A stretch of DNA of 63,420 nt, filler included. It is 13 parts of 13 records of this genome, joined end to end, with 100 filler letters (N's around TTAATTAATTAA, not from the genome) between each part and the next. Parts side by side here need not be neighbours in the genome. Positions count along the whole stretch, not along the records: positions 44,853 to 48,288 come from SRR7504441_19072; 12 more parts are not named here. One strand, given 5' to 3'. The position numbers and the translations under genes are program-made. Below are positions 4,877 to 53,344 of this stretch, one piece after another (position 1 is the stretch's first letter; every line of letters begins with the position of its first letter). The notes beneath the pieces are model-generated. The model saw only the letters and a program-made list of their open reading frames with translations. It searched no databases and had not been told where the DNA came from.

Positions 4877-4976
4877 NNNNNNNNNNNNNNNNNNNNNNNN
4901 NNNNNNNNNNNNNNNNNNNNTTAATTAATTAANNNNNNNNNNNNNNNNNNNNNNNNNNNNNNNNNNNNNNNNNNNN
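4877..4976. other. Artificial contig linker (N44-TTAATTAATTAA-N44); identical linkers at 8966, 17614, 21802, 26877, 30474, 36775, 41205, 44753, 48289, 51670 and 57906 (100 nt each)
   Basis: Identical all-frame-stop spacer flanked by N runs, 12 times. Confidence 0.99.
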
Positions 4977-8965: not shown

Positions 8966-9065
8966 NNNNNNNNNNNNNNNNNNNNNNNNNNNNNNNNNNN
9001 NNNNNNNNNTTAATTAATTAANNNNNNNNNNNNNNNNNNNNNNNNNNNNNNNNNNNNNNNNNNNN

Positions 9066-12000
9066 CCGGCCAACCCCCGGGTGCAGAGTACTCCCACCGC
9101 GAACCCGGACCCCGGTGATCGAGAAGAAGCCGAGCCCCAAGGCCCAGGAAGAGTTGTTCTGCGTGGGAACACATGCGCCCAGGCGAATGAGCGACGACGC
9201 GAGTGAGCACCTCTGGGACTACTTGTCTCGGCGCCACCACCTGCCTACAGAATGGCTGCGGCACCTCCTGGGCGGCGGCTTGTACATGACGGACGAGAAG
9301 CCAGCCGGCGCGTCCCAGTCCACCGCGCCCCGCAGGTACATTTCGGCGGTCTCAGGGCGCGGCGGGCTGAGCAGAGACAAAGTGTACGATGAGCTCACTC
9401 AGCTGGCCCCAGTAGTTCAGGTGGCCGCCCGGCTTGCAAGCAGTGAGTTGGTTGCGGCAGTTTATCAGGCGGAAGCTCGAGGAGGAGAAGCACTTGAAGG
9501 AGGGCCAGGAGGTGGAGGTTCTCGACTATCGACAGGGTGACGAGCGCCGCTCTATCGGGGTAGTGGTGAACATCTCGAGCAATCTGGACGTCCGAATGAG
9601 CGCGAAGGTCGAACATCCCGAGCAACCTGATTTGTGTAACCTGATTTGTGTGCACAGGATGTGCCGTATACCTCGCCAGATTGGTGGTCTATAGAAGGAC
9701 TGTCTGTATTGGACTTTGAGGCGACTGAGGTGCCGCCTCGCCTCTTGCACTTGATGACAGGGGGCAGTACGGCGGCTGCCGCTCGACATTGGGCCGCGAC
9801 GAGCAAGTAGACCTGCACGCTGAGAACGGATGCAGTGATGACACCCCAGAGCAGTGGCGCGATGCTATCAATCAACTGATGCAGATGGGCTTTGACCGCC
9901 AAATCGCTCAAGAGAAGGTAGTGGCCGCCAAGGGCAACGTGCAGAACGCCGTGGAGGCTGCATTGTTGCCCAAGCTCGCTGACGAGCTGCCCGTGACCAG
10001 CAATGAAGCCGAAGATAGGAGACAGGCAAAGCGACAGCGATGCAACAGCGACAATGGGCCCATTACAATCGACGAATCTATGATTGCGCCGCTTCAAGTG
10101 CCGAAAGCGTCGAATCCCTCTGGCTTTAAAGGAGTTTATCATGACAAAAGAGGGTTTTACACGAAATGGAAGGAAGCTAATGGCAGATGGAGCAGTGCAA
10201 GAGGTTATGCGACAGCAGAGGAGGCAGCAATGGTCTACGCTACAAAGTGCCATCAACTTCATATCGACCTGCCAGTTACTACTGGCGATTATGGTCTGCC
10301 TGATTATGGTCTGCCTGCAGTTGTCGACAGTGAACATGCAGCAGCAGCACTTGACAAAGGCAGTAATCAACACGAGCCGCCAGTCCCCAGTGTGGTCCCC
10401 AGCCCTGCGCCACACCAGCAATCGCTCAGGGAAGTGCTGGCCATTCTAGGATTGAGTCATCTGCATGACCTCTTTGACGAGGAATTTGTCAGTGTGCAAG
10501 AGCTGCCTTGTCTTTCCCCAGATGACATGAATGATCTTGGGATAACTCCAGCAGATCAAACGACAATTGTATCATGGCAGCAAGCGTGTGAAAAGCCAGC
10601 TTCTGACCGACCGCATGGCCAGCCATTCGATGATGATCAAGTGAAGCCATATCATGGCGAGATGATGGCTGACCAGCCATGCAAGCCTGATCAAGCAGAT
10701 GAACCTGCTGGGAATGCAGCTTCTAGAGCCCAGGACCCACGAAATGAGGACGTGACAGCCCAGGCCAATGTCGACCCACTTATACCACCTGCAAAAGGCT
10801 CTGCAGATCAACCCAAAGAGCACAGAACATGTGCTATATGCGCTGCATCTAAGCCTAAAAATCAGTTTTCGAATACTCAATGGAAAAAGAAACCTGCATG
10901 TGGATCCAAATGCATCCAATGCTGCCGACGCGGGCGCAGCACGGTGGCGCTCTCTGACGCGGAGTGGCTGGCGATGAAGCGGTGGAAGAGGGACAGCAAG
11001 GACCAGCCGGCCCAGCCGACGATACCCTGCGATCAAACCTCAAAGGTCTACCAGCAGAAAGCACGCCTTCTGCCGAGTTCTCTGCACCACCAGAGGGGCC
11101 CTCACACTCAACTAGAGCAATCTCCACTGCCCTTAGGGTGGCACCTACCGCCACGAACTCTCATTACTCGCATACAGCCGGCAGCGCTGCCTCCACCACC
11201 GCCGCCACCGCCACCGCCTTGCACAGCTGCAGCACAAACTCCCCCAGTGCCATGCACCCGAGAGGAAATAGACACCGTGATGCAAAAAGCTAAGAACATG
11301 ATCCACAATTTTCGGGAGCAAGGATCTGTTGAGGCTGCTCACAAAGCTCACAAAGTCGAGCTGCAGTACAAACTGCTATGTCTAAAGGAAGGCTTGCCGC
11401 ACGAACTGGACGCAAAGTTCTTTAAGTCATGCGACGACGAAGAGCGGCAGGAATTCGAGCGTCTCCTGAGCAGAAACAAGCTGAAGCTGAAGTGCAAAAA
11501 GAAAATAATGAAAGATTGGATCGTAGATACAATGGGTAGACATAGACCTTCCTTCTATGGCGAGAAAAGAAAAGATCATGAGGCAGGCAAAGAGATGATA
11601 CGTAATCTCACGCGTTCAATGGTAGAAAAGTGGCTGTTTGATGGGAGTTTCCTGGTGTCACGCTTAGTTGCAGCGTATATGCGGTGTGACGAAAAGATAC
11701 CTCGTAAGGACCTCAAAGAAGCCATCGGTGGTCGTCACCAGGACTGGCAGGATGATCTTTTAACCCGACTGGACACAGAAGAGCAAGGCAGCACTCACCT
11801 TGCTGGACCAGAAGAGCCCCTCAAGGAACCAGTGGCTAGCGATGCAGTCGATCAGCGAATCAATCGCGTGACTGATTTGCAAGAACGCGCCAGAGCCGCC
11901 GAAAAGAACCTTGAAGAGGAAAGGGAATGGAGGACAGAAGACAGGAGGAAATTGCATGCTGCACAGGAGCAGATGGAAAACTTTGAAGAACAGTTGGCAC

Positions 12001-13586
12001 AATTGCAGCAAAAACAGCAAAGAACATCTGTGAACAGCAATCAGGTTGAGCACTGGCGTGTTCTTCGACAACTTAGACTTGAGGCCGAGGGTACGTTAAT
12101 ACCTTGCTCCATCTGTCAAGAGCCCTTGACGCCACATCCTGAATACGGCCGACCTCATACGCTCCCATGCCAACACAAGTTTCATCATAAGTGTATTCGA
12201 GGGTGGATTGAAGTTGGCGATCGGACGTGTCCTTTGTGCAAGGCCCACATCTCACGAGCAAGACATCAATCAACACACAAAGCTGATGCCGACTTAGAAA
12301 ATAGTCAATCAAAGGCTGCAGCCCTTTGTTCACGTCTTCAAGACGACGAAAACGCTGCATTTGCCGCCATGTCGCTTTCTCAAAGGGCAACAGAATTGGC
12401 AACGCTGAAGTTACCCGAAAGGCCAGCAGTACTAGCTGCGATTTCGCCTCAGGAGAGGGGGGAGACACTCGCAGCCATGCTACCAGATGACCGGCGGAGA
12501 ACTCTGGAAGCAATGCCGCAAACTGACCGGATGGAGGCAGAAGCAACACTGCAAAGCTTACAGCCTACAATGAGGAGCATTGCGCAGATTCCAGCGCGTT
12601 CAACACGACAGTCGAAGGTCGATAAGTCCAAGGTCGACAAGATAAATGCATCCTACGCAGACAGGCATCAGACGAATCAAGAAACAGCAAGAGCTTTCAT
12701 TGCTCGAAACCAGGATCTTTCTAACGAGATAAAACAAAGGCTGATGAAGCTGAATCTGAGCGATCAGCTGTCCGTAATTGATTCATACGAGCGGCAGGCC
12801 AGAGGTGCTTGCAATCCAGAACGTCTCGCCCGAGAGATTGAGTTTGTTGAGCGGCGGCATGTCGGTCTGAAGCCTTCCAGCCGGAATTGTTTAGTGAATA
12901 GGCAAGAGGTGAAGAGGCAAGAGGATGACGTGCAGGCTCAGGGCTTTAATCAAGCCTTACGGGAGAGTGTGGCATCGGCTTCTACTAGAGGCCGTGAGCG
13001 CAATGATAGCCAAGAGCAACCCATTGTTGCGCAGCAACCTGAGAAAGGACACAGTGCGTTGAACCCGGTTGCAAAGCATACTGCAAAACGGGCGTTGGAG
13101 TCCTGCACAAAAGAGTCTGAAAGTGGCTGCAAGAAGCAGAGATCTACTACAGATAATCGCGAGGCGTCAACACCAAGGCTTGTCCGCTGCAGCGCACATG
13201 TCCTTGAGCGACTCGGCGTACCGCCCGTCGCAGCAAAGGGTGCTGCAACTTCAAAATCTAAAGTGGATGCAAAGCCTACGGTACCCCAGTGTAGGTTCTT
13301 TGTTCAAGGATTTTGCAAGTACGGTGACCGATGCAAATTTGCACATGACTGGCTCGAAACCGAAGCTCAAGTGGTCTCAGTGCTCAGTCAAATTCTCAAT
13401 GAAAGGGATGCTGGCGTTCTGCTTTCGCAGCTTGCAGTCGCGCTGTATGAGCAAGTGCCTGATGCTAGAGAACTTATCAAATCATATGGAAGCCTCAACC
13501 AGATGTTACAAGCCCCATGCTTCTCCCGGCGATTCAATCTCGTGTACAATCAGGCGCGTACAAATTATGAGCTACGGCTAAAGTAG
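9066..13586 (+). CDS. Multidomain protein: UBA, AP2-like, SAM, Stc1-like Zn, poly-Pro, coiled coil, RING-H2, CCCH, LOTUS-like; 5' end may be partial
   Basis: Upstream exons splice through 3 introns into the 3.8-kb ORF 9789..13586. Motifs: LMQMGFDR..NVQNAV; SGFKGVY..YATAEEAA; LGLSHL..F..E..LS.DDM.DLGI; CxxC..FSNTQWKK..CxxC; CSIC..CQHKFH..C..CPLC; CRFFVQGFCKYGDRCKFAH. Confidence 0.8.
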
Positions 13587-26876: not shown

Positions 26877-27266
26877 NNNNNNNNNNNNNNNNNNNNNNNN
26901 NNNNNNNNNNNNNNNNNNNNTTAATTAATTAANNNNNNNNNNNNNNNNNNNNNNNNNNNNNNNNNNNNNNNNNNNNGGCCGGGGCGGCGGGCTGGCTGCC
27001 CGGGGCATTCATCTCGATGTAGGCGTGCGACTGGTCGTCGTCGCCCACCAGTGGCTGGCTCAGGTCCTTGTTGGCCGCCATCACAAGCGCACCGTCCGCG
27101 CAGCCCGGCTGCTCAAATCAAAAATCCCCACCAGTCCTGCAGGTTGCTAAAATGCAACGGAAAGAGACTTCCTGAGTCGCAGAAAAGCATGCGACGACCC
27201 GGTCCAGAAGAGCTTGACCAGACACGCCCATTGCACCCCGCCTGACCCCCGGCCGCCCAGCCCGCG

Positions 27267-30200
27267 ATGGGTGCCGTGCGCAGCGTGGCCGCACTGCTCC
27301 GGAAGAACGTCAAGCTCAAGCGCCGGAACTGCACCTCGACCTGCTGCGAGGTGGTGCTCCCGATTATCCTGGTGATGCTCATCGTGGCCGGGTTCTTCCT
27401 GAGCTCCCCGGAGGACTACATGCAGCGCAACTACGCGTGCGAGCTGCTCAAGCTGTCCACCATCCTCCCGGCCGTCTCCAAAGCCACCGGGTACGACTTA
27501 GGGTTCTCTGGGGACACCCCAGACTACTCTGAGCTGTACAACTATCGCGGACCCACCCCGGTGATGACGTTCGACCAGTTCGTCGAGACCTCCGAGCTGC
27601 TCAACCAGCTCAAGAACGAGGCCGACGTAGGCTTCGACATCAACAACCTGGACAGCACTTTCTCAGGGATCCTCAATCTGGGCCGAATCGCGCTCTCGCC
27701 CAACACACCAGCCGTCGAAGGGTATCGGCAGTACATGAGCCAGCAGTATCAGCGGTGGGACGGACTCTACCTGCAGACCTTCGAGTCGGAGGACCACGCC
27801 GTCGAGTTCGCAAAGAATTGTGACGACAGTGAGAGATTCTGGGTGCTCATCAACTTCAATGAGCTCGAGGATTTCACGATCGACGTGACGATGCGATTCA
27901 ACTACTCAACCGTGCCCAACACCAAGCGGGTATGGGTGCCGTTCCCACGCGGGCTGTCCGGCTCCGATTACCGTAAGTACACCTGGTCCGGATTCACCAT
28001 GCTCCAGCAGACAGTCGAGGACTACAAAACCGGGCTCTCGCCGGTCTCTCAGGAGGCGTACCAGCTCACGCTCACCGGTGACGCCGACTATACGCTGGAG
28101 AGCAGCGGTGAGACCAGCGCCTGCAACGCGGGCACGATGTGCTCCGGGTCTGTGAACGATCTGAACGCGTCACAGTTCTGCTCGTCGGTCTGCTCCTCGC
28201 TGCAGGAAAACGGGAACTCAACTGCGACGGCCAACGGAACAATCAAGGGCAGCCAGACGTTCACGATAGACTCGACCAACTGGCGCACCTGGACTGTGCC
28301 CTACCCGACCGCGGCGTACAAGGAGAATAAGTTTTATAACTTTGCTGGCCCGCTGATGGGGATGATTATTTGCATGTCGGCTCTGTACCCGGTCTCGCAA
28401 CTGACCAAGGCACTGGTGGACGAGAAGGAGACCCGGATGCGCGAGGTGCTCAAAATGATGGGCCTGTCTGACGGCTCGCTCAATTCGGCATGGACGATTA
28501 CGTACGTGACGATGTTCTCTGTGATCGCTTTCCTGGATGCGATGCTGCTCAAGGCGACAGCGTTTAGTAAGACGGACTTCGTGCTGATGGTCACCTGGCT
28601 GATGCTCTTCTTCGGCTCGCTGGTCACGTACAGCTTCCTGATGGCCACCTTCTTCAGCAGAGCTAAGCTGGCCTCGATTGTGGCTCCAATCGCTTTATTC
28701 GCTACGATCCTCCCCAGGTATATATTCTTCCAAGCAGAGGAGGGCGAAGCGGTCGACGCCAAGATCGCCGCCGCCCTGCTCTCGCCTACCTGCTTCACAT
28801 TCGCAGCTGACCAGATGTCCGAGTACGAAGGGTCGATGATGGGGATCACTTTCGACACAATGTTTGATGGCGAAGGCTTGACATTTGGAATTTGCCTGCT
28901 GATGCTCGCGTTCGACATGGTGCTCTACTGGATGCTGGCCTGGTATCTGGACAAAGTGCTCCCGTCCATGTACGGCACCCGTCGCCCTTTCTACTTCTGC
29001 TGCCTGCCCAGCTACTGGACTGGTTCAGGGGGAGGCTCAGGCCGCCGGGCGGCGATTGAGGCGATGGCGACGGAGGTGAGCCGGACGATTGAGGAGCCGG
29101 TCCCCGAGGACTGGGAGGCCAGTGTCAGCCTGGACAAGCTGAGGAAGGAGTTTGACGATGGAGCCAAGGTCGCAGTCAAGTCTCTTAGCCTGGGCATGTA
29201 CGAAGGACAGATCACCGCGCTGCTCGGGCACAATGGGGCCGGCAAAACAACCACAATCAGCTGTATATCTGGGCTGCTGCCGGCGACATCCGGGGACTGC
29301 GTGGTGTATGGGAGCTCGATCCTGACCCAGATGGATGTAATCAGGAAGAATATGGGGATCTGCCCGCAGCATGATGTGCTGTACGCGCAGCTCACTGTGC
29401 TCGAGCACCTGCAGCTGTTTGCCACCCTCAAATCAGTGCCTTCTGAGGAGGTCGACCAGAAGGCTGAGCAAATGATCGAGGCCGTTGGGCTTGGTGAGAA
29501 GATCAATGTCATGTCGGCTGCCCTATCTGGTGGCCAAAAGCGGAAACTGTCGTTGGGAATCTCGCTGATAGGAGACTGCCGATTCATCCTGTGTGATGAG
29601 CCCACGTCGGGGATGGACCCCTACTCTCGCCGGGCAACCTGGGAGCTCCTGCGACAGAGCAAGGTTGGCAGGACAATTGTGCTCACGACTCATTTCATGG
29701 ATGAGGCCGATCTTCTCGGAGATCGTATCGCGATCATGACTACGGGCGAGCTCGCCTGCATCGGGTCTTCACTGTTCCTTAAGAGGCACTATGGTATCGG
29801 CTACAGGCTTGTTCTGACTAAAGCCACTGCTGAATGCAACGACGACAGCCTGCACTGGTTTGTGAAGAGACATATTCCGGGGGCAGAGCGTGTGAAGAGC
29901 TCCGCAGGTGAAATGGTCTGGAGGCTACCGTTTGACTCGATTGGTAATTTTGCCGCTCTCTTCAGGGAGCTTGAGGAGCAGAAGGATGGCTGGCATGTTG
30001 GCGGCTATGGCTGCTCCATGACCACTCTTGAGGAATGCTTCATCAGGATTGCTGAGGATGAGGCAGTGAACAATGACTCAGACGACAGCGACAGTGAAGG
30101 TTTTGACGAACCCACAACGCCAGTTAGTCAGGAGGCTCCGGAAGCACCGCCGCTGTACACAGCATCCATGAACCAGACTGGTGTGGCCCCGGTTGTTGCC

Positions 30201-30473
30201 CACCCAATGTCCTGCTTTCCTGATGAATGCCCTGCTTTCCTGATGAAGCAGGAAGAGAAGGTAGCCTGCTTTACATACTAGTCCTCCTCTGCATCTACAG
30301 TACTGAGTGTTTCTGTTGCTGCAGGACAGCATGGCACACGCGATTGCGATTCCAAACACCATGAATGACGACAAAGAATTGCCTCCGCCTCCTCCTCCTA
30401 AAGAATTGCCTCCGCCTCCTCCTCCTGAAGAGACCGGAGTGGCCATGGGAACAGTCGCACCACAGCCAGTAGA
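27267..30473 (+). CDS. ABCA subfamily transporter (first TMD and NBD), truncated by contig end
   Basis: ALLRKN..LKRR, EKETRMREVLKMMGL, WYLDKVLP..YG, Walker A GHNGAGKTT, GICPQHDVL, LSGGQKRKL, DEPTSGMDP, TTHFMDEADLLGDRI, TTLEECF. Confidence 0.95.
30372..30426 (+). repeat. 27-bp tandem duplication encoding KELPPPPPP x2; a second short duplication (CCTGCTTTCCTGATGAA x2) lies at about 30211-30247
   Basis: AAAGAATTGCCTCCGCCTCCTCCTCCT occurs twice in tandem. Confidence 0.85.
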
Positions 30474-43541: not shown

Positions 43542-44471
43542 TCATAAGCCCAACATATCGCGAATATCGCACAATACAGCCTCGGCACCCTCGTCGAACG
43601 AGATGCCGCGCTCCACGCTGCTCGGGATGAACGACTCGCGAGGGTTGATTCGGATCAGACTTCCGTCGAACACCCGAGCCAGGCGCTCGGCCGTGTTCCT
43701 GGCAGTCGGCACCGCTGTGCCACTCCCTATATCTATAACCACCAGCGATCCCTGATCGCGCTCCATCTCGGCCAGCCATTGGTTCATCCGGTGCTGCTGA
43801 GCCTCTGTGCGACTGCCGACCCAGTGCCAGTCTCCAAACATGAGTATATTCGGCCTTGCCAGCTCGCCGCCCGGCATATGTGGCAGCCGCCCTACAGCGC
43901 GGAAGGTCTCCGGGTCCACATCCACGGCATCCTGCATCTCCAGGATCTCACCGCCCGTCCCGTACACCCCCTGAATGTGGTGGATCGAGCCGTGGCACTC
44001 CACGATTCTCGCGCCATCCACCCCGGCCCGCTGAAACTGCCCGTCCACGTTGCTCGTGAACGCAAACAGCCCGTGATCTGAGCATCTGGCCGCCATTTGG
44101 CTGAGCGCATTGAACCCCTGATGCGGCACAGTCCGCCGGTAGAGACCCAGTCGGTGGCCGTAGAAGCCCCAGGCGAACTCAGGGTCCCGGTCGAAATGCG
44201 ACGGGTCGGCGCACTCGCTGAAGCTGAGTCCGAGCTTGGCCATCGGCGGGTACGCCCGCCAGAACCCCTGATTCCCACGGAAGTCAGGCAGCCCGCTGTC
44301 CACCCCCATCCCGGCTCCGCACGTGACCAGCAGCCCGTTGCTCGCCTGGACTGCCGCGGCCGCCTGCTCCAGGCGCTCGGACCGGCTGAGCGTCTGGCAT
44401 CGCCGGCAGCCGGCCGCTGAGCGCCCGTGCACCGCTGGGGCGCCGAGCTGCAGCCCCCGCGCCGCCAGCAT
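43542..44471 (-). CDS. SIR2-family NAD-dependent deacylase, bacterial-type, with a probable mitochondrial presequence
   Basis: GAGMGVDSGLPDFRG..GFW, FTSNVDGQF, ECHGSIH, RPNILMFGD, IGSGTAVPT, LIRINPRE; Arg/Ala-rich N-terminus; intronless. Confidence 0.92.
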   Translation of the reverse strand: MLAARGLQLGAPAVHGRSAAGCRRCQTLSRSERLEQAAAAVQASNGLLVTCGAGMGVDSGLPDFRGNQGFWRAYPPMAKLGLSFSECADPSHFDRDPEFAWGFYGHRLGLYRRTVPHQGFNALSQMAARCSDHGLFAFTSNVDGQFQRAGVDGARIVECHGSIHHIQGVYGTGGEILEMQDAVDVDPETFRAVGRLPHMPGGELARPNILMFGDWHWVGSRTEAQQHRMNQWLAEMERDQGSLVVIDIGSGTAVPTARNTAERLARVFDGSLIRINPRESFIPSSVERGISFDEGAEAVLCDIRDMLGL

Positions 44472-44968
44472 GCTGCCCAGTCTCAGCCAGGCCGCACACG
44501 CCCACACGTGACCGTTAAAATAAACGGGGACTACGTACCTGGTTAGTCCTGGTACCAGTTCGATGTAATTCACGGTGTATACGATGTATAATAATGTCAA
44601 ATAGTGTATCAAACGCGCAGCCGTAGCTATAGATTAGCTATATATAAGCCGCCTGTCGGAGCCGACCGCGTTTCTATGCAACAGTCTCTAATGTATGCAG
44701 CATTCGTCTCGAGCTGGCGGCGTCTCAAAAGCTCATGCTAGCGCGAGTCTCTNNNNNNNNNNNNNNNNNNNNNNNNNNNNNNNNNNNNNNNNNNNNTTAA
44801 TTAATTAANNNNNNNNNNNNNNNNNNNNNNNNNNNNNNNNNNNNNNNNNNNNTTAGTGTTGTGAAATAAACATAACATAACAAGGCCGCAGCAGACCTGA
44901 TCAGGTCGCTCGGAACTGCTCAAATAATATTCCTTGACGGTTTGGACTTCTTCACAACAACAAAAACA

Positions 44969-47900
44969 ATGGCGAAGGGAATCATCGCGTGTCTAGTGGT
45001 GGCGGTGTGCGTGGTGCAGAGCCAGGAGGAAATGGTGGAGCTCGCGAGCACCACCGGTCCAACCGCCTCGCTCATGAACACCCCGGTAGCTTCACTATCC
45101 GGCCGCGTGGCCTTGTCTCTCGCGGCTCACCGGGCGTACAGGGCAAGATATCGCTTCTGGAGCTCCGTACCCAAGCACTCTCCGAGGCGCGCGGGACCGA
45201 GGTCATGACCGAGGAGATGCTCAAGTCTGCCGAGAAGAACGTCATGAAACTGGCGAGCGAGTTCCAGACTCAGTCGATCCAGTCAGACAGCATTGAGACC
45301 ATCCGGTGTGTCTAACCTGGGCGTCGCCCAGGGGCTGACCATCGGCGGGTGGCTAGGCTGGCCAAGAAGCTGTTCGCACACAAGGGCGAGCTGGGAGAAG
45401 GGGCGGGCGCTGATGGGTCGGGCCTGACCCTGATCTTCCGCAAGCTGGACGAGTTGGAAGCCAAGGTGTCCCGTGCCTTGGGGAGTGCTTGAGCTGGCCG
45501 GTAGATCAACAACGAGCAGAAGATGGCCCTCGAAGCTGAGCTTGCTTCGCAGCAAGCCTGTCGGAATGGAGGCGAAAAGCTAAACCAGGATCTGACCCGC
45601 ATTACTAAATCTAGAGCTGAGGCCAGAATGAGCGTGCAAGAGCTGCAGACCAGGATCAAAAAGACCAGAGACGATTGGCGCGATTCTCGCCGAGACGAGA
45701 CCGAAACTCATAATGCACTTGTAGAACTGCAGGGTCTGCGGCTTGAGCGTAGTGAGGGCGTGCGCGCGAGAGTGGACGAGCGGAACAAGGCGATCGACGT
45801 CCTGGTCAAGGCCACGTTTATGGTGTGCGAGCGCTTCAACCGGTACAAGAACACCGAGCAGTGCATCACGATCAAGGCACAGCCAGATGTGGACGAGCCG
45901 CACAGATACGAGACAAAGAAGATGGAGCAGGCTAAGGTCGAGGCCAAGAAATTCCATGAGGCTGGTGGGGTGAGTGCGTCTTGGCCGGGGTTGGGGGCTG
46001 ACGGTGTCTTGGGCGCAGACCTGGGAAGTGCGCTGGCAAAATGTGATGAAAGACGACGCGGACAAGGTCGGCAAAGATGACCCTGAGGGGCTTGGGGGCG
46101 GGCTCACATCGCAGACACAAAACGCACCAGCAGAAGACAACGGAGCACTGGAGAGCACTGAGCTGCTAGAGCTGGAGGCGGACAGTCATTCGAAGAGCAA
46201 GGCACTCAGCCAGGACGAGGCGAATGCAGTGAAGGAGCTTGAGAAGATGGCACAGGACAACAAGCTAAGCGAGAAGTATGCGCTGCCGCTCAACGAGCTG
46301 GCGCTCTCGCTCAAGGCGGGGAGCACCAAGCGTTCCAAGAGCATTGTGGAAATCCTGATCGGAGTTCTGGCAACCACCCGGACAGAGCTTGCCGACATGA
46401 AGCACGAGCACCAGGATTCGTTGGACCAAGACTACAAAGCCAGCTGGGGGTTATGGCACAGCATGAAGATCCAGGCCGACTTGCAGGCTGAGCTGCGCAA
46501 GAGCATGGAGAGTGATCGGACCGATGTCCTGGCTAAGAACAATAACGACGAGGCAGAGCGGGTGTCTGCAAACGATGATGACAAAGCTAAGACTGAGATG
46601 GAGGACCAGTGCAGTCTAACATCGGAGAATTACGGAGTGGACACCACCATCCGGAACGAGGACCTTGAGAATCTGGTCAAGCTGAAGTCGCTGCTGCGGG
46701 CACTCTACTACAAGAACTTCCCCAAGGCTTGCCCGAAGCACAACGCAGTCATCTGCACATCCAAGAACCGAGGCTGGTGCGTGTTCACCCAAAAGAAACA
46801 GACGAACAATGAGCAGCGCTGCTCGTGCAACGTGGGCTATTATGGCAATGCCTGCCAGTTCAAAATGTGCCCAGGTCTGGGCAAGAGCTTATTCAAGGCT
46901 GACGACGAAGGCGCTTGCTCAAACCGCGGTGCGTGCAACCGGCTGACTGGAGTGTGCACATGCACCTCCGAGTACTACCACGGCCCCAAGAATGCCTGCG
47001 ACTTCAAGCACGAGCCCACACCAATGTGCTCAGACTCAGGGGACTTGGACAAGGTGCGTGGCCGATGCACATGCCAAGATGACAAAAGCGGTCCCGGATG
47101 TGAGTTCAAAAAGTGTTCCAACAGCAACGGCGTGAAATACGCAGTCGAGAGCGCCAATGCGTGCAATGGGCGTGGAGCATGCAATTTTGAGGGTGATGGC
47201 TCGTGCAGTTGCAAAGAGATGTATGAAGGCCCATCGTGTGAGATGGAAAAATGCCCGAATGACTGCATGGGTCGCGGCAATTGTGATAAAACCACAGGCA
47301 GGTGCGCGTGCGACAACGACGACGCTGGAAACCCATACTTTGGGCCGTCTTGTGAGTTCAGGAGCTGCCCATTTGATTGCTCCGGCGGTGGCGAATGTGA
47401 TCGCAACAACGGCAAGTGTCTCTGCAAGGATGGGTGAGCCATGGGTGGGAATTCTGCCCTGAATGTGTAATGGTGGCAGGTACTCTGGTATTCAGTGTGA
47501 GAAGACAACCCGGTGCAAGAAGCCCCAGCTCAACAACAACCAGATGAACTGGTGGACCATTTGGAACAAACCCGGCTGGATCGCCTGTCCACACGGCCAG
47601 CTCATGTATGAACTGAAGCGTTCGTCATGCCAGGCGCTCTCGTGCATCGCATCAGGTGGTTGCGCGGCTGCGTGTGAAGGTTCCACCGGCAACAACAACC
47701 ACGTGTTCCAGATCCGGCACTGCTACCATGACCTTCGTTGGTACAATGAGTTTGACAAAGAAGGGCTGGCCGAGTGTCTTCCTGACTACTTCGTGGCTGG
47801 GCTTTTCCGCAGCTGCGAGTCGCTCTACTGCCTGAACATGGCCAAATGCTGCTCACTCAAGGAGGCTCGGTGGACCCAATGCAAAGAGAGCGATTGGGCA

Positions 47901-48032
47901 GCTACTTTCGAACAGGCTGGGACTGGACGGGTCAAGCCGGACCAGTTCATTGTGGGGTTCCGCCGCGGCAAGGGACACCAGCTCAAGAATATTGATGGTG
48001 CCAAAGGCTGTGGGTTCATCCGAGGGTATTGA
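44969..48032 (+). CDS. Secreted protein: trichocyst-matrix-like coiled coils, tenascin-type EGF repeats and a C-terminal three-repeat Cys/Trp domain; 5 introns
   Basis: Signal peptide MAKGIIACLVVAVCVVQS; continuous frame after introns at 45086, 45306, about 45466, about 45970 and about 47434; CSNRG.C....G.C.C...Y.G..C repeats at about 46790-47480. Confidence 0.85.
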
Positions 48033-48689
48033 GTTCGAGGCCAGCTCTTGAATCGAATACGGCGAGGGTCTTCCAAAACTACATGTACGCAAAACAATCA
48101 TGACACACAACTTTGATAATTATACTCGTACATGTACAAAATTGCAAGCTTATGTATCACACGATCTCAGTTATGTATCGGCAATAAAAGAAACGAATTA
48201 CGATAAAAATCAAAAATGATAATTAGGCGGTGTGAACTTGATTGGGAAGAGAGCGTAAAGCGACCGACCCACCCTCACAAGCACTTTANNNNNNNNNNNN
48301 NNNNNNNNNNNNNNNNNNNNNNNNNNNNNNNNTTAATTAATTAANNNNNNNNNNNNNNNNNNNNNNNNNNNNNNNNNNNNNNNNNNNNCAACGTCTTGAT
48401 AGAGCGATCAATAAAGCGATGATAAATTCTTTATTATTTTCTATTGATCAATTAAACAAGCGTTAAGGGGCTCACAGCGTTCCCAGAGTAGAAATGATCT
48501 GGGCGCCTCAAAGAAACGTGGCTGGCCTCTTGTCGCAGCACGGCCTGCGGGGTACCGGGTGGGTACGCTGCTCCCCGATGGCCCGGCCAAGGCGGACACC
48601 CGCGGGGATCCACTAGAAGCTGCTCGCGCAGTCCATCATCCCCGTCAAGACTCCTCGAGCTCTCACCGCCGCTCGCACACCTGCGTGCC

Positions 48690-51855: not shown

Positions 51856-52292
51856 CTAGCTTGCAGGAGTGCTGATGGCTCGGCTCTCGGCCTGCTCAAA
51901 CTCTTGATAGGACGGCGCACTCTCCACTAGTGTACGCCGAATCTGCGGCCCGTCCGGTCCGCGCAGCCGACAGAGCAAGCTGCCGTTCTTGTAAAAGTAA
52001 AAGGACGGGCACGAGTCATTCAGCTGCTCCGGGAAGCACTCAGGCCCGCAGCTGAACCGATACGCCTTGCACGGCGGCACCTGCACCCGGGGCTCCCGGC
52101 AGTCCGGTGGCCCAGCACCGTCGGGTCTGGGTCGGCCAGCAGATCGCGCAGCATCGGCTCGGTGGCGCGGCAGGGGCCCCACTCCGGGGCGAAGACCTCT
52201 AGCAGCACCAGCCCGGGGTAGCTCGACGCCGCCTCCCGCTCCCCGTCGGTGCTCAGCTCGACCGGCCATTCGCTCAGCAGTCGCCAGGCCAT
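51856..52292 (-). CDS. Thioredoxin-fold protein with atypical WGPC site (NME8/dynein light chain-like), 1 intron
   Basis: GLVLLEVFAPEWGPCRA...CPSFYFYKNG.LLCRLRGPDGPQI; a 38-nt GT..CAG intron restores the frame. Confidence 0.75.
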
Positions 52293-52345
52293 TCCAGGCC
52301 GACCGCTCTAATAACGGCAACAGCTGGGCCGGGGTGGGGTGTGTG

Positions 52346-53344
52346 ATGGACTCAGGGGCGCGGCTTTGGAGCTGCGACGAGCTGCGGCGGGCGCAGGAGG
52401 CCGGCGAAGAGCCCGTGGTGGTGTGTGTGGGCCAGGGTCCGCCCAAGCCGGCCGCGCCCATCATCCTGGGGGCGATCTACATGGACACGGCCGAGATCGA
52501 GCAGTGGAGCGACGACATGCCCCACGGCACGGGCAACCTGCTCCCCGACCCTGTGCTCCGTCGGGTATTTGAGGCTCACGGGCTGACGGCGAACACCCGG
52601 GCATACGTGTACACGGAGGACTTTAAACATGGCGGCAGTGACCCGATCGCGGCCACCCGGCTGGTCTGGGCGCTCTGCTACGCCGGAGTGGCCGAGGCCG
52701 GCCTGATCGACGGCGGGATTGCGGAGTGGACCGCCCGCGGCTTCCCGCTGGCCGACGCTCCCCGTGTGCCGGCCCGGCGAGGCTTTTTCGGGAGCTCTGG
52801 CCGCGGGCTCTTCCCGGCCCGTTCCTGGCTGCTGGCTTCCACTGAAGAGGTCGAGGCTGCCTTGCCCTCAAGTTGCTCCGCAGGGTTGGCTGAGCGTCGA
52901 GCGGCCGTTATTGCTGACGTTCGGTCGTGGGACGAGTTCACTGGACTCTCTCACGATTATGCGTATTTTGAGGCGCTGGGGAGGATCCGAGGCGCCCGGT
53001 GGGCCCACTGGGGGCCGTCGACCTACGTGGGCGGAGACTTCGTGGAATGCGAGGCGAGCTGCCGGCTGCGGCCACTGGAGCAGATTAGTAGGATCTGGGC
53101 CGATTGGGGTATTGCGCCCGCCCTGGCGGAGGGTGGACGGGTTATCTTCTATTGCGGGTCGGGGTGGCGGTCGTCTTTCGCGTGGTTCATAGCGGCGCTG
53201 TTGGGCTGGCATAACGCGGCTAACTATGACGGCGGGTGGCTGGAGTGGAGCACTTGCCATCCGCGCGCTGCAGAACTGCCCAAGGCGCGAGGGCAACCGG
53301 ACAAAGGCGAGAAATGCTTTGAATACTCACGATCGGGCGACTAA
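52346..53344 (+). CDS. Tandem-domain rhodanese sulfurtransferase, YnjE-like
   Basis: AATRLVWALCYAGV....IDGG..EW, DVRSWDEFTG...Y.Y....GRIRGARWAH, catalytic FYCGSGWRSS, YDGGWLEWS; intronless. Confidence 0.9.
   Translation: MDSGARLWSCDELRRAQEAGEEPVVVCVGQGPPKPAAPIILGAIYMDTAEIEQWSDDMPHGTGNLLPDPVLRRVFEAHGLTANTRAYVYTEDFKHGGSDPIAATRLVWALCYAGVAEAGLIDGGIAEWTARGFPLADAPRVPARRGFFGSSGRGLFPARSWLLASTEEVEAALPSSCSAGLAERRAAVIADVRSWDEFTGLSHDYAYFEALGRIRGARWAHWGPSTYVGGDFVECEASCRLRPLEQISRIWADWGIAPALAEGGRVIFYCGSGWRSSFAWFIAALLGWHNAANYDGGWLEWSTCHPRAAELPKARGQPDKGEKCFEYSRSGD

Follow-up and report, generated by a model that had tools for sequence, protein, structure and literature searches.

The precursors of the trichocyst matrix proteins (TMPs) of ciliates are polypeptides of 40-45 kDa, about 370-377 amino acids long and with a pI near 5, that are cut into pieces of 15-20 kDa (10.1101/607622). 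The core of the mucocyst is built of Grl proproteins that are likewise processed; Grt1p is not, and is located at the membrane-docking tip (PMC4142616). Here, we describe a gene at positions 44969-48032 (plus strand) of a 63,420-nucleotide stretch of DNA (hereafter, the window), the predicted product of which joins an N-terminal two-unit module, related to secreted proteins that carry the Pfam label PF27870, to an array of epidermal growth factor (EGF)-like repeats and a C-terminal domain of three repeats.

Telonemia is an orphan lineage, sister to the SAR (stramenopiles, alveolates and Rhizaria) group (PMC8924772). Its extrusomes, which are thought to fire at and anchor prey, and its tripartite hairs are described by microscopy only in the available part of that account, where no protein is named for either structure (PMC8924772). 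The closest named relatives of the gene are, by sequence identity, those of Telonema subtile. In this orphan lineage, the fusion of a PF27870-type module with EGF repeats and a previously undescribed domain of three repeats is, at the level of predicted proteins, a new combination. The three-part architecture and the kinship with PF27870 proteins are conclusions in which we place high confidence. An earlier note on the locus had seen a TMP-like coiled coil fused to EGF repeats and a three-repeat lobe, and had proposed an extrusome tip or adhesin. As an observation this was borne out overall; of the interpretation, a stand-alone two-half family with the Cys/Tyr/Arg register proved to exist and to be related, and the extrusome tip is conjectural.

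Gene structure and transcripts

Reading in three frames, combined with GT..AG borders, gives a single six-exon gene that begins and stops exactly at the two ends of the interval that the earlier note had delimited. The spliced coding sequence is open over 2823 nucleotides and specifies, in the standard code, a protein of 940 amino acids (104 kDa; whole-protein pI 6.0).

44954..48216, plus strand: mRNA span, from RNA contig coverage; poly(A) is added after 48216
44969-45085, 45142-45305, 45357-45465, 45505-45969, 46019-47433 and 47480-48032 (including the stop), plus strand: coding sequence in six exons, from the spliced open frame and RNA joints
45086..45141, plus strand: intron 1, 56 nucleotides, GT..AG
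45306-45356, plus strand: intron 2, 51 nucleotides, GT..AG
45466-45504, plus strand: intron 3, 39 nucleotides, GT..AG
45970-46018, plus strand: intron 4, 49 nucleotides, GT..AG
47434-47479, plus strand: intron 5, 46 nucleotides, GT..AG

All five introns are skipped exactly by RNA contigs in each of the four marine metatranscriptome runs that were aligned, which come from three studies. Contig X1 record 1 (3034 nucleotides) covers 44954-48216 in six pieces and continues into AAAAAAAAA, a run of A, and contig X3 record 2 (2975 nucleotides) covers 44964-48179. Each is a single contig that spans from upstream of the ATG to past the stop codon and differs from the window in 0-3 letters; therefore, the coil-like region, the EGF repeats and the C-terminal head lie on one mRNA, and the suggestion that coil and EGF parts might belong to separate genes fails. 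Near-identical sequence, whole or in part, was found in 20 of the 24 public runs listed (19 RNA; 9 marine plankton studies), and the DNA runs X21-X24 contained hardly any of the words sampled, which is no evidence either way. Thus, the gene is real, spliced, polyadenylated and expressed in a marine protist, at a level that RNA contigs cannot yield.

Single-letter differences between the window and the RNA contigs of other runs occur at 46111, 46316, 46437, 46816, 47004 and 47383; these resemble strain variants. At 46111, for example, X3 and X6 have A in place of G, and at 47004, X3, X5 and X6 have A in place of T. One contig (run X5, record 6) joins 47011 to 47532, skipping 520 nucleotides with ends GA..TC, and at either end runs loose into unlike sequence. 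It was dropped as an isoform and probably either derives from a paralog or is chimeric.

The N-terminal module and PF27870 proteins

The protein starts with a hydrophobic N-terminus (MAKGIIACLVVAVCVVQS), in which a putative signal peptide was recognized by eye; its relatives likewise start with hydrophobic leaders. The region up to residue 520 is divided as follows.

44969..45025, plus strand: putative signal peptide, residues 1-19, hydrophobic run IIACLVVAVCVV, read by eye
45026..45405, plus strand: N-terminal extension, residues 20-110 (about 90 residues), acidic (pI 4.98), spanning introns 1 and 2
45406..45900, plus strand: half 1, an A-type unit, residues 111-262, spanning intron 3, with the end RVDERNKAIDVLVKATFMVC...C..IKAQPDVDEP
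45901..46219, plus strand: variable acidic linker, residues 263-352, spanning intron 4, differing in length and sequence among relatives
46220..46723, plus strand: half 2, a B-type unit, residues 353-520, starting near RSKSIVEILIGVL and ending in C483-x6-Y-x6-R-x-E (46610-46660), followed by DLENLVKLKSLLRALY

The strings on which the earlier description was based (SLLEL, ELGEGA, LIFRKLDELEAKINNEQ, RVDERNKAIDVLVKATFMV, SIVEILIGVL and QCSLTSENYGVDTTIRNEDLENLVKLKSLL) are all present in the 940-residue protein, and a conserved GK(I/M)SL(V/L)E(L/I) lies inside the N-terminal extension. The A-B module comprises two units in 410 residues (46.4 kDa, pI 5.20).

We aligned the N-terminal region in 15 transcript-derived rows together with exons 4 and 5 of the gene (alignment A2) and used the resulting profile to search 1.84 billion representative proteins exhaustively, free of any word filter. 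At E<=1e-3, the search retrieved only 163, mostly members of the three-part family described below and fragments thereof. The rest (E about 1e-4 to 1e-9) are secreted proteins, all with a hydrophobic leader, in two size classes: those of 350-405 residues match over one stretch or two, and those of 640-770 residues over three or four; one of these remote relatives, the four-unit P0199, is from the dinoflagellate Togula jolla. A profile built from six two-unit forms retrieved at least 88 proteins. Among the 88 matches listed, the precomputed label PF27870.1 is attached to 86, three proteins from Symbiodinium or Cladocopium bear the designation 'unnamed protein product', and the PF27870-labelled proteins with species names are from dinoflagellates only; a search with the single protein P0210 yielded only five close relatives among the matches listed.

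Profile-profile comparison with hhalign of A2 against A4, an alignment of 13 four-unit proteins, scored 96.6% (E 6.1e-10) over 320 colinear columns, and comparison against A5, the six two-unit forms, scored 86.3% (E 4.8e-6) over half 1 only. When the template was reversed, both scores dropped to 0.1%; a reversed template keeps the composition and helical character and yet loses the match. The 320 columns bring into register the early Cys of half 1 with the CWC of the four-unit proteins, the end of half 1, the RS..I..IL with which half 2 begins, and the motif that closes it. In addition, an A4 hidden Markov model (HMM) directly matches the exon-5 (E 7.9e-5) and exon-4 (E 1.6e-3) frames in a set of 1166 open reading frames.

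Unit by unit, half 1 matches unit 1 (92.8%) and unit 3 (96.5%) of the long PF27870 proteins, against 1.6% for unit 2 and 46.7% for unit 4, and half 2 matches unit 2 (96.4%, E 1.4e-9), against 0.2% for unit 1, 0.7% for unit 3 and only 19.7% for unit 4, with reversed controls at 0.3-0.4% for half 1 and 0.2% for half 2. Within the long proteins themselves, unit 1 matches unit 3 (98.6%) and unit 2 matches unit 4 (98.5%). It follows from these unit types that PF27870 proteins are either A-B forms, of about 350-430 residues (P0210, P0218, P0243), or (A-B)x2 forms, that is, A-B-A'-B' proteins of 640-770 residues (P0179, P0199), and that the 940-residue protein carries one A-B. The two halves were also considered as direct repeats of each other, which was rejected at an hhalign score of 0.2%.

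The B unit closes with C-x6-[YFWH]-x6-R-x(1,2)-E, which occurs once in the 940-residue protein (C483...E499). The motif is found in 100 of 103 proteins of the PF27870 set, twice in 69 of them (mean of 0.22 in shuffles), and in 42 of 60 members of the three-part family (mean of 2.3 and maximum of 7 in shuffles); the other 18, which lack the strict form, include a distant branch and paralogs in which the Cys is replaced. The PF27870 proteins further have in common with the N-terminal module a secretory leader and the order of the units, A-type before B-type. In both, a Cys lies some 30 residues inside the A unit, and the B unit opens with RS..I..IL and ends in C-x6-[YF]-x6-R-x-E-[ED]-L/I... They differ in that the PF27870 proteins are stand-alone, with no EGF-pattern unit in any of the 13 long ones, whereas in the three-part family half 1 is followed by an additional VC-x11-C..QPDVDEP block, and the long linker of variable sequence, the six EGF units and the head are likewise additional. 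One four-unit protein of the PF27870 type (P0214, 769 residues) has a short Cys-rich extension in its last ~90 residues, after the final B unit; hence, the A-B scaffold has been extended outside the three-part family as well.

Could the N-terminal region instead be an ordinary coiled coil, with its likeness to two-half secreted proteins due to chance similarity of composition? In Pfam, it weakly matches generic coiled-coil families and no others (CALCOCO1, E 0.045), and the single-profile E-values to PF27870 proteins, 1e-4 to 1e-9, are modest. Chance of this kind is difficult to reconcile with the reversed-template controls (0.1-0.4%), with halves that match different unit types and not each other, with the Cys/aromatic/Arg register in common with PF27870 proteins, or with the blocks VDERNKAIDVMVKA.F.VC and EDLENLVKLKSLLR, which are near-invariant across the three-part family. 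A search of PDB with the N-terminal profile found no chain, and thus no coiled coil, below E 0.3, and since PDB is rich in coiled coils, the profile is not promiscuous. Apart from scattered weak matches of the coiled-coil type, no Pfam family was matched at E<=1 in the first ~520 or last ~170 residues of the gene product or of any of 16 relatives (16/16). We regard this alternative as largely refuted and its chance of being correct as very small.

Of the two helical halves proposed earlier, the halves stand, matching as they do a stand-alone two-unit family, and the coiled coil is putative. A crude a/d heptad score of the module is 0.299, compared to 0.276 +/- 0.025 in 200 shuffles, about 0.9 standard deviations above, and on this ground a canonical coiled coil is not asserted; with a score barely above that of shuffles, 'helical halves' is a description rather than a result. 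The idea that the matches might be of a generic coiled-coil kind does not survive, the module being specific to PF27870 A and B units with a register in common. Judged by these alignments, the N-terminal module is one A-B module, homologous to the units of PF27870-labelled proteins.

A three-part family with relatives in Telonema

A search of longer proteins, seeded by words of exon 5, produced 68 matches, the top 59 of which are full-length (851-1173 residues), with 37-59% identity over coil 2 and EGF and 82-100% query cover. Telonema subtile (EukProt) accessions, derived from four different Trinity genes, are present in four of the ten clusters that were looked up, the other six being without accession. 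With the best identity at 59%, the source organism is not T. subtile itself. The earlier characterization of that organism, as not a typical ciliate and using the standard code, was right.

Using local HMMs for the three parts, we found that the three-part architecture, which the earlier note had proposed to look for elsewhere, is present, with an N-terminal module, at least three EGF patterns and a C-terminal domain, in 90 of the 115 stored proteins of at least 600 residues; the remainder comprise four with the N-terminal module and EGF only, 13 with an N-type module only and eight with EGF only. A metagenome scan gave at least 61 confirmed loci out of at least 596 pattern matches, many of them uninterrupted transcripts of ~3 kb. 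The three-part build is thus, on the predicted proteins, the rule in a sizeable, multi-paralog family. Text searches of the literature, none of which was aimed at the family by sequence, found no description of it, nor did they turn up any mention of PF27870. Stand-alone paralogs of the module, which the earlier note had suggested seeking in this genome, were not found in the other 12 contigs of the window, the only ones searched.

Several members depart from the common plan. A distant branch (L042-L061; P0063), with 23-38% identity, keeps all three parts, has extra C-terminal tails (such as ...YGQLYKYKTRFDN or ...FYGNDYR), and has a B-unit end outside the strict motif. The linker of paralogs L016, L019 and L020 contains an insert of ~70 residues with five or six Cys (CPE.P.TCPVLD...HCAG.C....C.AF.F.KD..CKL; linker context L016:180-1931, L019:119-1867 and L020:327-1838). 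The domain PF00024 (PAN) is listed in the precomputed Pfam column for two other relatives, P0052 and P0054.

The EGF array and the three-repeat head

46724..47513, plus strand: six tenascin/teneurin-type EGF-like units, residues 521-768, from Pfam and Cys pattern, spanning intron 5
47514..48029, plus strand: C-terminal Cys/Trp domain, ~170 residues, 14 Cys, three repeats, from alignment and repeat profiles
~47544-47675, ~47706-47858 and ~47862-48029, plus strand: head repeats R1, R2 and R3, from repeat-repeat profile scores

The estimate of about six EGF units of the tenascin type agrees with the Cys pattern, by which six units, starting at residues 523, 569, 622, 651, 697 and 735 and with 34 Cys in total, are discerned, the third being a 4-Cys form. 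Two Pfam models exceed their cut-offs, namely, EGF_2 (E 5.1e-14, 52.8 bits against 22.1, in four stretches) and EGF_Teneurin (29.8 bits against 24.3); EGF_TEN, at 44.5 bits, stays under its cut-off of 65. The three-repeat lobe proved real: in profile-profile comparison, R1 matches R2 at 98.9% (E 1.5e-17) and R3 at 94.0%, and R2 matches R3 at 94.4%. The repeats have in common the pattern W...(W/F)D..GW..C..G.hh.Gh.R.....L..h....C, and 23 positions are invariant among 30 aligned heads, including nine Cys, two Trp, CYH and SLY.

The head was seen only behind the EGF arrays of the three-part family, no separate database search having been made for it, and a PDB sequence search with the head profile gave no match (best E 0.41). 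It has, presumably, a look of dermatopontin (three repeats, W....G....CP.GQ..), a resemblance without Pfam support; dermatopontin likewise comprises three Cys/aromatic repeats of ~45-55 residues in a domain of ~170. The head differs from dermatopontin in that no Pfam model matches it at E<=1 in exon 6 or in 16/16 relatives, and no PDB sequence does. Membership was dropped given the absence of a Pfam match at E<=1 in exon 6, the presence of the dermatopontin model in the Pfam copy being unchecked. The head is, by sequence, a candidate new binding fold with no Pfam or PDB relative.

The EGF array brings in an alternative view of the whole protein, namely, that of a constitutively secreted adhesin of the cell surface or extracellular matrix, engaged with prey, substrate, mating or the cyst wall, with a tenascin-like build of oligomerizing N-terminal helices, EGF array and globular head, and no firing organelle. 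Tenascins are built of an assembly region, an EGF array and a head, and the domain order here is like theirs. The EGF_2, EGF_TEN and EGF_Teneurin models all match, the EGF units score best with teneurin/tenascin-type models, frog tenascin-X is matched over 43% of the query, and PAN, the domain listed for P0052 and P0054, is typical of adhesins. The tenascin-X match covers the EGF part only, however, and generally it is only this part that aligns with tenascins and teneurins, the two ends being unrelated; the N-terminal module was not tenascin-like in any search, and the abundance and doubled forms of its PF27870 relatives would suggest bulk structural material over a receptor-type adhesin. We consider an adhesin of this kind rather doubtful.

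Comparison with TMP and Grl proteins

According to the earlier note, the halves of TMP and Grl proteins would end in a C..Y..R..E register. In design, there is a likeness: ciliate TMP/Grl proteins have a signal peptide and, according to the papers, an acidic precursor of 40-45 kDa, compared to 46 kDa and a pI of 5.2 for the N-terminal module, although to 104 kDa and 6.0 for the whole protein. The variable acidic linker between the halves would allow cleavage as in TMP/Grl, without showing it. The differences are that TMP/Grl proteins are stand-alone, whereas here one mRNA encodes the A-B module together with the six EGF units and the head, and that the organism of the gene, unlike the TMP/Grl ciliates, uses the standard code. 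We know of no domain that Grt1p has in common with the 940-residue protein. The role proposed in the earlier note would, by analogy only, be that of Grt1p, the unprocessed tip cargo of the Tetrahymena mucocyst (PMC4142616). Cleavage of the TMP/Grl precursors yields the smaller polypeptides of which an expanding core is made (10.1101/607622, PMC4142616). Rhiel and co-workers considered a protein of Oxyrrhis, CAMPEP_0190382616, to be a candidate TMP on its being listed by DELTA-BLAST with Paramecium TMPs (PMC8285334).

We accordingly file the module as PF27870-like, from its profile matches, and as TMP-like by what would be a resemblance in design, not as a member of TMP/Grl. A broader proposition, that the A-B module is an ancestral extrusome matrix unit of Telonemia and Alveolata, that PF27870, TMP/Grl and the three-part family constitute one superfamily, and that telonemids welded an EGF stalk and lectin-like head onto it, strikes us as improbable. 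If true, it would mean that one polypeptide is both a lattice subunit and a prey-binding extrusome tip, it would open telonemid extrusomes to molecular study for the first time, and it would be evidence for a common origin of the extrusomes of TSAR (Telonemia and SAR).

Possible roles of the protein

In the explanation that we favor, the A-B module would be the assembly part of the protein: by associating with itself or with further A-B proteins, it would build up a densely packed polymer, either extracellular or within granules. The EGF array, rich in disulfides, would act as a stiff spacer, and the three-repeat head would be the binding end. The likeliest site would be the matrix or tip of telonemid extrusomes, which would be fired at prey, where the protein would serve as a lattice-anchored adhesin. 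An assembly role for the module has, in our estimate, slightly better than even odds, and the extrusome location is tentative; for the whole chain, location included, we put the probability at roughly 0.4. Dinoflagellates possess trichocysts and mucocysts (PMC5375639). Relatives of the A-B module occur in these organisms. The extrusome is favored for that reason, dinoflagellates not being known to have tubular mastigonemes (hairs). The acidity and TMP-precursor size of the N-terminal module, and the Oxyrrhis candidate, also speak for it.

A number of points weigh against the extrusome explanation. No TMP, Grl or ciliate name appeared among 30 proteins looked up or the 88 matches listed (0/30 and 0/88), weak evidence in itself, and no Pfam model of TMP/Grl gave a match. 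PF27870 is listed in the precomputed Pfam column for none of the 68 relatives of the gene, and the kinship is therefore remote. PF27870 proteins occur in Symbiodiniaceae, which are not known to have trichocysts, so that the module need not be specific to extrusomes, and the crude heptad test lends no support to a canonical coiled coil. Between the extrusome proteins of dinoflagellates and those of ciliates, reciprocal BLAST detected no homology (PMC5375639). Furthermore, EGF-rich secreted proteins are known parts of the tubular hairs of stramenopiles (bioRxiv 10.64898/2026.09.11.750887), and telonemids bear tubular hairs too (PMC8924772).

These last two points lead to a different assignment, in which the protein would be a component of the tubular (tripartite) flagellar hair. 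It would correspond, in telonemids, to the mastigoneme proteins with EGF domains known from stramenopiles, and its A-B module would polymerize into the shaft or base. Ocm and Sig1 are also counted among the stramenopile mastigoneme proteins. The three known mastigoneme proteins of Phytophthora have three EGF-like domains each and are found on the shaft; these proteins, PnMas1-3, resemble the 940-residue protein in being secreted, having several EGF-like domains and building an extracellular appendage (bioRxiv 10.64898/2026.09.11.750887). In telonemids, tripartite tubular mastigonemes mature in the perinuclear space, and one species, Arpakorses idiomastiga, is described as lacking mastigonemes (PMC8924772). 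That the three-part family is multi-paralog and well expressed also fits with hairs. The likeness to PnMas1-3 is, however, known from the EGF-like domains alone, which number three there, and the source presents these proteins as stramenopile-specific, calling Mas proteins unique to flagellate stramenopiles (bioRxiv 10.64898/2026.09.11.750887). Moreover, there is no stramenopile name among the named matches listed. The occurrence of A-B relatives in dinoflagellates, which are not known to have tubular hairs, also speaks against this assignment, which we judge unlikely.

Taking the extrusome and hair readings together, the protein may be a building block of harpoon-like organelles or of flagellar hairs in telonemid-like plankton. 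The remote, controlled link between the N-terminal module and abundant stand-alone proteins of dinoflagellates suggests a building block of extracellular or granule polymers that is spread across distant protists, and this link makes the question of extrusome-matrix homology directly testable.

Composition of the window and other genes

The window consists of 13 contigs that are joined by N44-TTAATTAATTAA-N44 spacers (for example, at 4877-4976 and 8966-9065); 12 such spacers were found, with none (0) expected by chance. Because the gene is alone on its contig (44853-48288), it comes without a genomic neighborhood, and adjacent genes in the window are not neighbors in the genome. The GC content across the 13 joined pieces ranges from 0.51 to 0.70. 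Several other frames of 900-1300 residues in the window have no Pfam match at 1e-5. The long frames of the other contigs include a Sir2 protein (43545-44633, minus strand), a transporter with ABC_tran and ABC2_membrane_3 (27246-30278, plus strand), a protein with RING and CCCH zinc-finger domains (9729-13583, plus strand) and a rhodanese (52001-53341, plus strand).

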